NCBI GenBank assembly: GCA_029262615.1
Contig: JAJCZD010000005.1
Span: 265,317-329,316 of the forward strand
DNA: 64,000 bases
Direction: 5' to 3'
Source of the DNA: Candidatus Babelota bacterium
Lineage (GTDB): Bacteria; Babelota; Babeliae; Babelales; Vermiphilaceae
The notes under the pieces were generated by a model. The model searched no databases. It worked only from the letters and a program-made list of their open reading frames with translations, and had not been told where the DNA came from. Below are positions 53,703 through 64,000 of the stretch, piece after piece. Each line of letters starts with the position of its first letter. The stretch's first letter is position 1. The translations under genes and the position numbers were made by a program.

Positions 53703-56558
53703 ATGACACGCACCATTTTATCCATTAATTTTCTTTTCTGTTTTTGTTTTGTTTATCCTGCAGAAATAATGCTAGGTGATAAAGCCGCAGCAGCCGGGCA
53801 AACGTTTTCATTTGCTATTGGTCAGCATGTTGGATTTCCTGATGGAAGTATGTTTTTTGTTGGGGCTGCACAAAATGGTGCAGAAGGTTTTGCAATTGCA
53901 GGCCTAAGCCGTTTTCAAGATAATTTTCAACCATCACTTATAGAAAAAGCAACAGTGAATAATGTGGCAAATCAGATCAATCCGTTATTTAATAAAGGGA
54001 TTGCTTTCTTGAATCTGATTTTGTTGGGTGATAAAAATTATGCAACTATTTCTGTTACTAATGACGAAATTAAAACGATGAATTTGTTGCTTAAAAATGA
54101 TTTTGTTTTATCAACAAGCCCGCTTACTGATGCAGCTGGCAATATAACTGATGCTATTACGGCCATTACTGGTGGATTAAATACTGGTTTTGCTGCAGTG
54201 CGTGCAGAAGGACAAGCGCAATTTGGTATTGGTGATAGTGGTATTGCTTTTGTCTCTAAACTGTATCCAAATGCCGGAAAAAAAGAAGATGAGCAAAATG
54301 AGCAGAAAAAAAATAATATGTTCTTTTTGCAGCAAGATTTTGATAGTGATACTACGTTGCTTCGTGCTGCACCACTTAATATTTCTTCCGATATTATTAA
54401 AATAGGTGGTGATCTGGCTGGTGCCGAGGTTATTGACATGATATTTAATAATGATTTGACTCGGTTATATGTGGTTCTACAAGCACAAGCTGCCGCTGGT
54501 GGAGCTGATGGCGTTCGTGCTATGGCTATGGGTTACTTAATTCAAGAAGTGCAAGAAACGCCACAAACACAAGAAAACTCAGACTGCGAAAAGCCAGAAA
54601 AAAAGATAATCAAAACAAAGTTTAAATTAGTTGAGGTAGTGCCATCAGCCGTATTTGATGGTGCTCAGGATAAAATAATTGGCGCACTTGGTGCAAACGA
54701 GCAAGTTTCATTGCATAAAATTCGTTTTATGCTTACCTCTGGTCGAGTCCCATACCTTATAGTTGTCGGTGGTAATGGCTCACCAAATGCAACGGAGCAA
54801 TTGGTATTTGCCTTGCCAGTCGTTGATTTTCGTAATGAACTTGGCCAAGTGCCAAGTGACAAACTAGATCAACAAGGTGCCATTGCAAGCAAAGATGCAC
54901 CAGCAATTGCTCAATTTTCATCAAAAGCACCACATGTATTTTCATCGCGTCAATTTCAGGTTGAGGCAACAACCCCTGCACAAATGCCAACAAGCACAGA
55001 TGCCGCAACTCAAGTTGGTGGCGGTCCACTGCAAGCTGGCCCTATTACTGATATTGTGGTAGCTGCCGATTCTGTTTTTGTTTCTGTTGGTCAAGCTGAC
55101 CCAAATGAGAAACCGGGTATCTTTTATTCTCAAGCATTATTTGATGCGGATGAAAAAATTGTTGCATGGTCAGAATGGGCGCGCGTTGCTGGTACTACTC
55201 AAATGATTTTTGGTATTGGTTATGAACCGCAACAAGCTAATTTTGTGTATCTGACCGGATCAGATGCTAATGACATTAAAACGGTCAAGCGTACTCAATG
55301 GGGCCTTGGGGACCAACTGCTTTCCTTTGATTTAGTAAACAAAATCAACCGTCAATATCCACAAATAAATGGCGGTTTATTTGGTTATTTTGATTTTGCA
55401 TCAACAACTTCTGGCTTGCAAGAGGTTGCTATCCAGGTGGCAACTGGTTGTTCCAAAATAAGTTTGATACAAGCGGGAACAGGTTCTCCGGTTTGCCCAA
55501 CACAAGGAAGTTTCCCAGAACGAATTTTTGAAGATGGCACCATTGGCCAAACCTTTCCTATTGCCAATACGAAAATAGTAACCATTAACGGCGGTCAATT
55601 GGAAACCATAGGTCCAGTTGAAGCAGCAGAAATTGGTCAAGCCGGTGTAAATAGTTATTTATTTGTTGGTGGCCGTTGTGGCCTTGCGGTTTTGATACAA
55701 CCAAATGGTGATGGCTTTGATACCGCCTCTGGGCAATTAGAACCCGAGTTTGTGGGGCTATCCTCCGGCATGAAATTTGTTGGTATTGATGAATATAGGT
55801 TTGTACGCACATTAATAGCTGACCAAGGATTTTTGTATGTGTTAACCAATAATAAACTTGATCGTATTGATATCGCTGCTAGTGATTTTGCTACAGGCAC
55901 ACTTGTAGTGACCACTATCGCTCAACTGAATACATTTTCTGGATTAGGAGATGGTGGTAGTTTTAAAGACGTTATTATTTCCGGTAAATTGGCACTGCTT
56001 GCAACTAGTGCTGGTATGTTTCGTTTAGCAGATGGTAAAGATATCACAACCATTACTGGACCGGCTCAGCAAGATTGGCAAATAGTACCAATACCAGAAG
56101 GGCAATTACCCACACTTCAACTTTTTCCTATTTCTATAAACGGTCATCTGCAAGATGTATCAGCAAATTTAATTGGCCAAATTTATGCGCTCGGTTCTTT
56201 TATTTCGGCCCAGCAAGGTACGATTAATCGCTTTTCAATTACAAATACTATTGGAGCAAATCAAATAACAGACCAAACAGTGGAACCATTTGAAGATTTT
56301 GTTATACAAAATGTCTTAAGTAATTTTTCTCTTATTGGTGATAATCGGTGTTTATTTGCAACCGATGGCGCTGCTGGGTTAAATAGTGTTAATGGTACGG
56401 TAGGTTGTTGTGCAATATTGTTTAATAGATTCCGTGATTTCAAAGCAGAGATCCCGTTGCAAATTGAACCAGCATGTTCTATTGTACAAATTTTGCGATC
56501 ATCAGCATCAGGAAGTTGGTTTGTAGCTGGTGATTTTGGATTGCGTGTCAATGAATAA
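53703..56558 (+). CDS. Large secreted protein, Gly/Ala/Thr/Gln-rich, beta-rich (propeller-like?); no family recognised
   Basis: ATG 53703 is preceded by GAGGG. Leader MTRTILSINFLFCFCFVYPA. 951 aa with visibly higher GC than its surroundings and many long antisense ORFs. Confidence 0.7.
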   Translation: MTRTILSINFLFCFCFVYPAEIMLGDKAAAAGQTFSFAIGQHVGFPDGSMFFVGAAQNGAEGFAIAGLSRFQDNFQPSLIEKATVNNVANQINPLFNKGIAFLNLILLGDKNYATISVTNDEIKTMNLLLKNDFVLSTSPLTDAAGNITDAITAITGGLNTGFAAVRAEGQAQFGIGDSGIAFVSKLYPNAGKKEDEQNEQKKNNMFFLQQDFDSDTTLLRAAPLNISSDIIKIGGDLAGAEVIDMIFNNDLTRLYVVLQAQAAAGGADGVRAMAMGYLIQEVQETPQTQENSDCEKPEKKIIKTKFKLVEVVPSAVFDGAQDKIIGALGANEQVSLHKIRFMLTSGRVPYLIVVGGNGSPNATEQLVFALPVVDFRNELGQVPSDKLDQQGAIASKDAPAIAQFSSKAPHVFSSRQFQVEATTPAQMPTSTDAATQVGGGPLQAGPITDIVVAADSVFVSVGQADPNEKPGIFYSQALFDADEKIVAWSEWARVAGTTQMIFGIGYEPQQANFVYLTGSDANDIKTVKRTQWGLGDQLLSFDLVNKINRQYPQINGGLFGYFDFASTTSGLQEVAIQVATGCSKISLIQAGTGSPVCPTQGSFPERIFEDGTIGQTFPIANTKIVTINGGQLETIGPVEAAEIGQAGVNSYLFVGGRCGLAVLIQPNGDGFDTASGQLEPEFVGLSSGMKFVGIDEYRFVRTLIADQGFLYVLTNNKLDRIDIAASDFATGTLVVTTIAQLNTFSGLGDGGSFKDVIISGKLALLATSAGMFRLADGKDITTITGPAQQDWQIVPIPEGQLPTLQLFPISINGHLQDVSANLIGQIYALGSFISAQQGTINRFSITNTIGANQITDQTVEPFEDFVIQNVLSNFSLIGDNRCLFATDGAAGLNSVNGTVGCCAILFNRFRDFKAEIPLQIEPACSIVQILRSSASGSWFVAGDFGLRVNE

Positions 56559-56567
56559 GGAACTTCT

Positions 56568-63451: not shown

Positions 63452-63453
63452 GG

Positions 63454-64000
63454 ATGAAGAAGAAAATAATAATAATTGTCCTAGCAATAGGATTGGTAGG
63501 ATCGAGTCTATATATTCAGCAAGTCCATGCCTTTAACCTTGGAAAAGCAATTAGAAAAGGATTAAAAAAAGCAGGAAAAGCAATTAAAAAGGGCTTTGAT
63601 GGAGCTGGAGACCAAATAAAAAAAGCATTTCAAAAATTTGGTAAAGATATAAAAAATATTGGTGAAAATGTAATTGACGGCGTTGAGGATATAGGTGAAA
63701 CGACCTGGAATAAAATAAAAAATTTCCCCGATTGTTTAGATGTGGTGAAGTACGGAACTGAATGGGCTAGTCTTCGCGGATCTTATGAAGCATCAAAAGC
63801 GAGTATAAAAGCAACTGAGGAGAGTTTGAAATTTTTTGGTAATGCGGCAAAAACATTAGGAAAAATATCCGCAGCTGCCCTTAAAAAAGGCATAAATATA
63901 AAAGAATTTGAGTTTAATGCGTCAGTTGCTGAACTAATAAAAATAAAAACCCCAGAGTTCAAAATTAAAGCAGTCGCTTTTGGCAAAACTATTAATGTTG
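63454..64000 (+). CDS. Secreted Lys-rich amphipathic-repeat protein, 3' end outside the window
   Basis: ATG 63454 lies 2 nt after the upstream stop, and the frame is open to the window end (not in the ORF track). MKKKIIIIVLAIGLVGSSLYIQQVHA, then GKAIRKGLKKAGKAIKKGFDGAGDQIKKAFQKFGKDIKNIG. Confidence 0.6.
   Translation, partial: MKKKIIIIVLAIGLVGSSLYIQQVHAFNLGKAIRKGLKKAGKAIKKGFDGAGDQIKKAFQKFGKDIKNIGENVIDGVEDIGETTWNKIKNFPDCLDVVKYGTEWASLRGSYEASKASIKATEESLKFFGNAAKTLGKISAAALKKGINIKEFEFNASVAELIKIKTPEFKIKAVAFGKTINV

Follow-up and report, generated by a model that had tools for sequence, protein, structure and literature searches.

A conserved two-gene outer-membrane unit beside a variable family of exported proteins in Dependentiae

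Results

A block of five co-directional genes

We analyzed a 64,000-nt stretch of DNA from a Candidatus Babelota bacterium (contig JAJCZD010000005.1; the window), the last 10 kb of which carries five plus-strand ORFs (open reading frames), ORF1 to ORF5. The gaps between them, in order, are 9, 127, 25, and 2 nt (Table 1). An earlier note, made from the sequence alone, had interpreted this block as one surface or effector-delivery module of large secreted proteins built around an outer-membrane barrel. The genes that it listed, their positions, and their close spacing were all confirmed, as were the Sec-type leaders, which can be recognized by eye on every one of the five proteins. In Chromulinavorax destructans, signal peptides are carried by 44% of coding sequences (PMC6561590), so a leader does not by itself distinguish a protein in this phylum.

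The note was also right that the large proteins fall outside known families: they belong to no Pfam, NCBIfam, or PDB sequence family. Searches of Pfam and NCBIfam likewise found none of the signatures whose absence it had remarked on (POTRA, TPS, autotransporter, Rhs, and RTX) and, for any of the five proteins, no match to the AsmA/TamB, S-layer, or porin families that it had named as possible mundane explanations. All five have homologs, and their dN/dS values (ratio of nonsynonymous to synonymous divergence) against the locus of a related species, L074, which is 84.5% identical to the window in nucleotide sequence, lie between 0.05 and 0.15. This comparison underlies all dN/dS and dS values given below. 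Sequence past the end of the window was read from a 1.7-kb identical contig; there, a sixth co-directional gene, encoding the 749-aa paralog P0169, begins 56 nt past ORF5.

The notion of a single five-gene module was not supported by the co-occurrence analysis, which splits the block in two. ORF1 and ORF2 form a conserved pair while the presence of the family to which ORF3, ORF4, and ORF5 belong varies between genomes, and the block is therefore best described as a core pair beside a hotspot.

Table 1. Features of the block and its surroundings. Coordinates refer to the window unless a locus is named.
Feature	Coordinates	Strand	Remarks
ORF1	53703-56558	+	951 aa; alternative TTG start at 53691
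ORF2	56568-57806	+	412 aa; leader ...ANA/MNF; C-terminal ...SLSF
ORF2 conserved mature N-terminus, candidate lumen plug	56631-56690	+	aa 22-41; consensus MNLLRPYDTLIRP
Candidate sigma-70-like promoter TTGCCC-18-TATTAT	57835-57864	+	in the 127-nt ORF2-ORF3 gap; consensus match only
ORF3	57934-60747	+	937 aa; exported variable-family member with inserted J-domain
ORF3 J-domain	58357-58506	+	aa 142-191; Pfam PF00226, E 1.2e-12, 48.2 bits (cut-off 27.8)
ORF3 HPD motif	58438-58446	+	aa 169-171; intact
ORF3 core common to ORF4	58636-59763	+	aa 235-610; BLASTP/tblastn
ORF4	60773-63451	+	892 aa; GTG start; exported paralog
ORF4 orphan C-terminal domain	62705-63448	+	aa 645-892; 248 aa; follows coiled coil and KRKCxGKA
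ORF5	63454-64000 (window end)	+	182 of 208 aa inside the window; small, exported, Lys-rich
ORF5 amphipathic repeats	63544-63708	+	aa 31-85; five repeats of 11 residues
ComM/YifB-type Mg-chelatase-like ATPase	51985-53520	-	divergent from ORF1; synteny anchor
Ankyrin-repeat protein	50705-51379	-	224 aa; signal-peptide-like N-terminus
Pro-rich and coiled-coil ORF	50210-50689	-	159 aa; hydrophobic N-terminal stretch
ORF after ABC-transporter ATPase gene	44367-46121	+	584 aa; no Pfam match
Opposite-strand gene before T2SSF operon (~310-335 aa)	L001 12814-13818; L003 13900-14877; L075 14681-15667; L079 5070-5999		
MlaD/MCE gene	L001 18567-20159; L003 19598-21229; L075 20328-21950		530-545 aa

ORF1 and ORF2 are a pair conserved across Dependentiae

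A scan of species-representative genomes yielded 68 loci, among them those of Vermiphilus pyriformis and of strain Noda2021 (complete genome). The fetched loci were searched with profile hidden Markov models (HMMs), and 60 of them had enough flanking sequence for the pair to be counted. In 59 of these 60, the gene directly upstream of the ORF2 homolog is an ORF1 homolog in the same orientation, and the complete genomes of V. pyriformis and strain Noda2021 both show this adjacency. The sole exception is L048 (CAVUUR010000010.1, 7500-19100), where no ORF1 homolog separates ComM from the ORF2 homolog that comes directly after it; the T2SSF-T2SSG-MlaD cluster of that locus is also inverted.

The pair sits within a shared gene order: AcpS and ComM (divergent), ORF1, ORF2, a gap of variable content, an opposite-strand gene of ~320 aa, and the T2SSF operon, which comprises T2SSF, T2SSG, pseudopilins, and an MlaD-like gene. 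In most of the fetched loci, ComM lies upstream of the ORF1 homolog and is oriented divergently from it. With a dN/dS of 0.049, ORF2 is as constrained as ComM (0.050), and ORF1 has a value of 0.15; over the phylum, ORF2 has a median identity of 44%, and ORF1 one of 31%. Wherever the source of a homolog was named, for either gene, it was a Dependentiae or Babeliales assembly, which bears out the note's pointer to Dependentiae. No sequence relatives of ORF1 or ORF2 were found in Pfam, NCBIfam, PHROGs, or the PDB (the last searched with single proteins and with family profiles). A metagenome scan with alignment A3 found no relatives. ORF1-ORF2 is thus an uncharacterized two-gene outer-membrane unit, held by almost all members of the Dependentiae.

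ORF2 is modeled as an outer-membrane barrel with a candidate plug

The 206 homolog clusters of ORF2 are 43 to 54% identical to it, and a Pfam domain is recorded for none. Structure models were prepared for ORF1 and ORF2, and the ORF3/4 family was compared by sequence. The AlphaFold2 model of ORF2, built with 43 homologs (pLDDT 89.7, pTM 0.83), is composed of long antiparallel strands. Its top Foldseek match is FapF (E 2.5e-10, TMt 0.65-0.73, identity 8-10%), followed by the COG4313 channel Pput2725 (4rl8; E 1e-8, TMt 0.73) and then by FadL-type channels and autotransporter β-domains. The model and the matches agree with the earlier reading of ORF2 as an outer-membrane barrel ending in Phe and place it in the FapF/COG4313 structural class; the pair is a new family inside a known fold class. 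The number of strands, read from the DSSP string together with the fold matches, appears to be 12, possibly 14.

Residues 22 to 41, at the start of the mature protein, are non-strand in the model and precede the first barrel strand. Among 43 sequences, N23 and Y28 in this segment are invariant, and P27 and D29 are conserved in at least 90%. The corresponding N-terminal segment blocks the lumen in COG4313 and FadL channels; in the former, which are implicated in uptake of hydrophobic molecules, the N-terminus is inserted in the barrel (PMC4493636). By analogy with these channels, residues 22 to 41 of ORF2 probably plug or gate the lumen. FapF, too, has a plug, which is helical (PMC5557850).

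Only ~20 residues separate the leader from the first strand, and there is no passenger domain. Between the strands lie large conserved segments that are confidently modeled. The window protein has 13 Cys, as its description as Cys-rich implied, but within the family none of the Cys positions is conserved, and this richness is lineage-specific.

ORF1 is modeled as tandem β-propellers

ORF1 has 47 full-length homolog clusters (27-40% identity), again with no recorded Pfam domain. Its AlphaFold2 model, built with 40 homologs (pLDDT 88, pTM 0.90), is all-β with ~60 short strands, in keeping with the earlier description of a β-rich protein. In this model, as in that of ORF2, the N-terminal ~20 residues are of low confidence. 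Foldseek returned generic multi-propeller matches from the PDB, the top one being the two-propeller ectodomain of BT4673 (E 1e-9), and only generic propellers from viral structures. ORF1 is accordingly predicted to be an exported protein of tandem β-propellers, with blades read from the strand pattern and the fold matches. To judge from the strand order, the last propeller blade is probably supplied by its conserved C-terminus.

The pair compared with known barrel systems

ORF2 resembles the COG4313 channels (Pput2725, SphA, and TcpY; Phenol_MetA_deg) and FadL in that its model matches 4rl8 and, more weakly, FadL and TbuX, and in its C-terminal aromatic residue. It differs from them in sequence (no match to PF13557 at E<=1, and no PDB relative detected with the 43-homolog profile), in being ~120 to 140 aa longer with large conserved inter-strand segments, and in being paired with a 950-aa propeller gene, with named homologs confined to Dependentiae/Babeliales. 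FapF, the functional-amyloid exporter of Pseudomonas, is a plugged 12-stranded barrel encoded after exported substrates (PMC5557850). ORF2, however, lacks the N-terminal periplasmic coiled coil of FapF and has no fapA-E neighbors, and ORF1 is modeled as a folded propeller, not an amyloid subunit.

The type V systems share with the pair a large exported protein beside a barrel, and the β-domains of EstA and EspP are among the weaker ORF2 matches. In two-partner secretion, however, TpsB is an Omp85-type, 16-stranded barrel with POTRA domains, whereas the best matches of ORF2 are 12-stranded and it has no Pfam or NCBIfam match at E<=1. No FhaC-type TpsB occurs among the 50 listed ORF2 matches, in which BAM-complex entries are weak (ranks 22 and 46; TM ~0.3). 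The Haemagg_act domain of TpsA was not found by Pfam in ORF1, ORF3, or ORF4, and ORF1 is modeled as propeller-like rather than β-helical. From the autotransporters (type Va), ORF2 is set apart by the lack of a passenger and of any Autotransporter match in Pfam.

PorZ-PorQ and the SprB-SprF/PorP-like systems also encode a large exported protein beside a mid-sized barrel, and by comparison with them ORF2 might export or anchor ORF1 only, displaying a conserved ligand-binding propeller at the cell surface, with ORF3 to ORF5 being unrelated cargo of the type II secretion system (T2SS). PorZ consists of two seven-bladed propellers resembling BT4663 and BT4673 (PMC5121618), the latter being the top PDB match of ORF1, and FadL-type barrels anchor cognate surface proteins, with sprB and sprF as adjacent genes (PMC9143113). 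The near-universal adjacency of ORF1 and ORF2 fits such a display system, and the conserved inter-strand segments of ORF2 could be docking loops. Those barrels, however, are 14-stranded members of the FadL family, and there is no sequence similarity to them; no Por_Secre_tail or other type IX secretion system (T9SS) C-terminal domain was detected in ORF1 with NCBIfam and Pfam, its conserved C-terminus being probably the last propeller blade. An adhesin with loops conserved throughout the phylum would also be surprising, given how much the protists known as hosts differ from one another. To our knowledge, T9SS has been described only in Bacteroidota. We give surface display of ORF1 some, though limited, credence.

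ORF3, ORF4, and ORF5 belong to a variable family of exported proteins

An exhaustive search with a family profile found 217 representative proteins at E<=1e-3, with lengths of 208 to 2118 aa among the matches listed; some contain a repeated core, and members have Dependentiae-type gene neighborhoods wherever these were inspected. A word-indexed search with ORF4 recovered only ORF4 itself and P0169. There is no Pfam model for the family, and the only real match of ORF3 to ORF5 in Pfam, NCBIfam, and PHROGs is the J-domain of ORF3. PDB searches with sequences and profiles of the ORF3/4 family returned only coiled-coil noise. Weak matches of ORF5 to tape-measure proteins were rejected as products of its Lys-rich, helical composition. 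As far as sequence comparison reaches, the family has no described relatives.

Members share an architecture of leader, N-region, Gly-rich core (~600 aa), coiled coil, Cys junction (KRKCxGKA in the window), and tail. ORF3 and ORF4 are 27% identical over 406 aa (E 8e-20; BLASTP, tblastn) and differ in their C-termini, which agrees with the earlier view of them as paralogs with exchangeable modules; ORF4 and P0169, from the same genome, are 42% identical over ~640 aa. The C-terminal domain of ORF4 has no match in Pfam, NCBIfam, or the PDB or among 150 family representatives, and the L074 counterpart of ORF4 has the same junction followed by a different tail. ORF3 and P0169 carry a standard C-terminal module in fused form.

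ORF5 represents that module as a separate protein, 36 to 37% identical to the C-terminus of P0169. Its full length is known from P0264, which is identical over aa 1 to 182; the window omits the last 26 residues. L003, L076, and L079 likewise have a small ORF5-like gene directly behind a large family member. The description of ORF5 as a Lys-rich repeat protein running off the window holds, with 17% Lys and five repeats (residue identity of 0.31 at lag 11 versus 0.02-0.18 at the other tested lags from 3 to 19), but at 208 aa it is not one of the large proteins.

Pfam searches with 70 family members revealed no recurrent domain, the exceptions being the ORF3 J-domain, one Macro domain, and one NPCBM_assoc domain. 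The Macro (ADP-ribose-binding) domain, on one long member, and NPCBM_assoc, on another, look like accessory domains grafted onto the scaffold. The database version of ORF4 (P0168, 884 aa) uses an internal ATG start, which leaves the leader without its basic n-region; translated from GTG, the protein begins MKFFRKITMF..., in agreement with the paralogs, and P0169 also starts with GTG in L077.

Tandem paralogs with a conserved scaffold, a junction followed by unrelated tails, and small downstream module genes recall polymorphic toxins such as Rhs and CdiA. Unlike these, ORF3 to ORF5 and the 70 members searched with Pfam have no Rhs/YD, FHA, VENN, or known toxin domains; their leaders are plain Sec leaders, no immunity-like gene was recognized, and the small downstream gene has a signal peptide of its own.

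The ORF3 ortholog in L074 (6562-9399) is 76% identical in amino acid sequence. For ORF3, dS is 1.43, compared with 0.38 to 0.52 in the flanking genes (0.38-0.48 for ComM, ORF1, and ORF2), and dN/dS is 0.105. Because dS is about three times that of its neighbors while dN/dS stays near 0.1, these values suggest that ORF3 has had a different history, such as recombination or exchange between lineages, under continued purifying selection.

ORF3 contains an inserted J-domain

The embedded J-domain that had been read from the ORF3 sequence was substantiated: its PF00226 match exceeds the gathering score and the HPD motif is present, which makes ORF3 a J-domain protein. The closest J-domains in the PDB are those of DNAJB8, DNAJB6, and DNAJA1 (E ~1e-9), and both the DnaJ match and HPD are kept in the L074 ortholog. 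The domain is absent from ORF4 and P0169, and among 33 family members scanned it was found only in ORF3; it is a lineage-specific insertion, confined to ORF3 and its orthologs. An apparent loss of the N-terminus and J-domain in L005 was rejected as a scaffold artifact; the ortholog called there looks truncated because a run of 100 N (L005 5957-6056) lies inside the gene.

Host-associated organisms are known to deploy J-domain effectors, among them HopI1 of Pseudomonas syringae and the exported Hsp40s of Plasmodium. ORF3 is similarly an exported protein of an intracellular parasite that carries a J-domain with HPD. It differs from DnaJ-type effectors (for which see PMC6802931) in that the domain sits inside a 937-aa scaffold and in its probable route of export, which would be Sec, possibly followed by T2SS, rather than the type III secretion system or PEXEL. 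Because a J-domain has no partner in the bacterial periplasm, that of ORF3 would most likely engage host Hsp70 after release.

The hotspot between ORF2 and a type II secretion operon

Depending on the locus, 0.9 kb to >10 kb separate ORF2 from T2SSF, and the contents of this gap are mostly unrelated. An iterated family HMM found members downstream of ORF2 in only 10 other ORF2-centered loci of the ~70 fetched, with one to three members in each. The expectation that the barrel would co-occur with the giant proteins therefore failed for the ORF3/4/5 family and held for ORF1 alone. In four family-centered loci that were inspected (L075, L076, L078, and L079), ORF1-ORF2 is beside none of the members, which in L075 and L079 lie directly upstream of the T2SSF operon and in L076 and L078 elsewhere. 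Counting L003, family members adjoin the T2SSF operon in three loci. The association of the hotspot with the secretion operon is thus no weaker than that with the barrel. With its Sec leaders and, in these loci, its position next to the operon, the family is a candidate for T2SS export.

These distributions bear on whether all five (or six) genes could after all constitute one secretion or display module, in which ORF2 translocates or anchors ORF1 together with the ORF3/4 family by a two-partner, autotransporter, or FapF-type mechanism. Tight spacing and common orientation agree with this, although in small genomes such spacing need not mean a functional module. The best ORF2 match, FapF, is a polypeptide exporter, autotransporter β-domains match as well, and in all 10 ORF2-centered loci with family members these directly follow ORF2 on the same strand. 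Yet most of the ~70 other ORF2 loci keep ORF1-ORF2 with no family member downstream, and the four family-centered loci show members without a neighboring pair. ORF2 also evolves like a housekeeping gene next to a hypervariable family, POTRA, TPS, autotransporter, and ShlB domains are lacking in Pfam and NCBIfam searches, and a candidate separate promoter lies inside the 127-nt gap. We consider a single module distinctly improbable.

Two neighbors of the hotspot recur. In L001, L003, L075, and L079, the T2SSF operon is immediately preceded by an opposite-strand gene of ~310 to 335 aa that has no Pfam match, and an opposite-strand ORF of similar size is present in many further loci. The last gene of the pseudopilin operon encodes a conserved MlaD/MCE protein, which additionally matches Aq_493_lipo and, faintly, a 'Helical_needle' model; it suggests a periplasm-spanning lipid conduit in the ORF1-ORF2 neighborhood. 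In L078 (DAOVNX010000002.1, 3-8469), the genes that precede the 2118-aa family member P0202 encode Omp85/BamA and a 407-aa protein whose N-terminal region is very acidic.

Flanking genes and intergenic signals

On its 5′ side, the block is bordered by housekeeping genes, namely an ATP synthase subunit, a DEAD-box helicase, Lon, MurJ, AcpS, ComM, and tRNA-Met. Just upstream of the block lies a gene for an ankyrin-repeat protein, which is of the type proposed as a Dependentiae effector, adjoined by the Pro-rich, coiled-coil ORF. Farther upstream, the 584-aa ORF directly after an ABC-transporter ATPase gene may encode a divergent permease partner of that ATPase.

The sequence of the ORF2-ORF3 gap is conserved in the close relative L005. 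Consensus promoter sites, of which this gap contains one, were not enriched over shuffled sequences in the promoter scan, and a terminator scan of the block found none between genes. GC skew is positive throughout positions 52000 to 64000 (0.08-0.14), exceeding that of most of the window, and ORF1 has the highest GC content (0.41).

Discussion

We favor, with somewhat better than even confidence, a composite block in which a core envelope complex, ORF1-ORF2, lies beside an island of secreted, probably host-directed proteins. ORF1 would be a Sec-exported, rigid tandem β-propeller, most likely docked on the ORF2 barrel, and the two would form a gated outer-membrane channel complex with ORF1 as the soluble partner. 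We prefer a function in which the complex captures host-derived hydrophobic or amphipathic molecules and lets them pass; retention of ORF1 at the cell surface by the barrel is a serious alternative. No lipid biosynthesis genes were found in C. destructans, whose authors infer use of host lipids (PMC6561590), and most lipopolysaccharide (LPS) genes are missing in Babeliales (PMC4776705). It is these two circumstances, together with the fold class of ORF2 and the MCE/MlaD gene nearby, that lead us to favor a role in uptake.

ORF3, ORF4, ORF5, and P0169 would be tandem paralogs in a recombination-prone island between the pair and the T2SS/pseudopilin operon, in which the junction is followed either by the standard C-terminal module, fused or separate, or by a swapped-in tail. 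The family would comprise secreted or surface proteins that interact with the host, with the adjacent T2SS, rather than ORF2, as their probable exporter. We favor this role because the ORF3 J-domain has no periplasmic partner, the tails vary, and the island lies beside the T2SS operon.

Several points weigh against this composite interpretation. Fold similarity among barrels is generic, and the top match, FapF, exports polypeptides and is not a lipid importer. Both the strand number and the plug of ORF2 derive from the secondary-structure string and fold matches, and the docking of ORF1 on ORF2, like the side of the membrane on which it would sit, is a proposal. In L048, ORF2 is retained but ORF1 does not adjoin it. 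A J-domain or other effector-like domain is lacking in most family members, and adjacency to the T2SS operon may merely reflect the conserved synteny of small genomes.

β-Propellers are frequent periplasmic scaffolds, and ORF1 might be one, comparable to BamB or TolB and bound to the inner face of ORF2; the pair would then serve the structure or biogenesis of a reduced, LPS-poor outer membrane, and the ORF3/4 family would consist of envelope or periplasmic structural proteins. ORF1 and ORF2 are indeed single-copy core genes under strong purifying selection, most family members lack a host-directed domain, and dark-staining periplasmic material has been described in C. destructans (PMC6561590). 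Such a role leaves an intact-HPD J-domain, maintained by purifying selection, without a partner, since the periplasm contains neither Hsp70 nor ATP, and it sits poorly with the Macro domain on one family member. Hypervariability and tail swapping, moreover, typify proteins exposed to hosts or competitors, not structural parts of the envelope. We judge a purely structural periplasmic role unlikely.

Within the composite reading, a more specific and bolder version can be put forward only tentatively: the pair may be a new outer-membrane machine of Dependentiae, serving as a host-lipid import gate or as a new route of protein display on an LPS-poor outer membrane, and the family may be a new class of modular host effectors that travel by Sec and T2SS and have tails (J-domain, Macro domain, and orphan domains) recombined at the junction.

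Dependentiae are widespread obligate parasites of protists whose means of attachment, feeding, and host manipulation are poorly understood. The pair may perform an essential envelope function in bacteria without LPS and, in C. destructans, without lipid biosynthesis genes. Its orthologs occur in V. pyriformis (L016) and strain Noda2021 (L008), lineages reported in amoeba co-culture, so that its function may be testable now. The ORF3/4 family, for its part, adds candidate effectors to a phylum for which mainly ankyrin-repeat proteins have been proposed so far.

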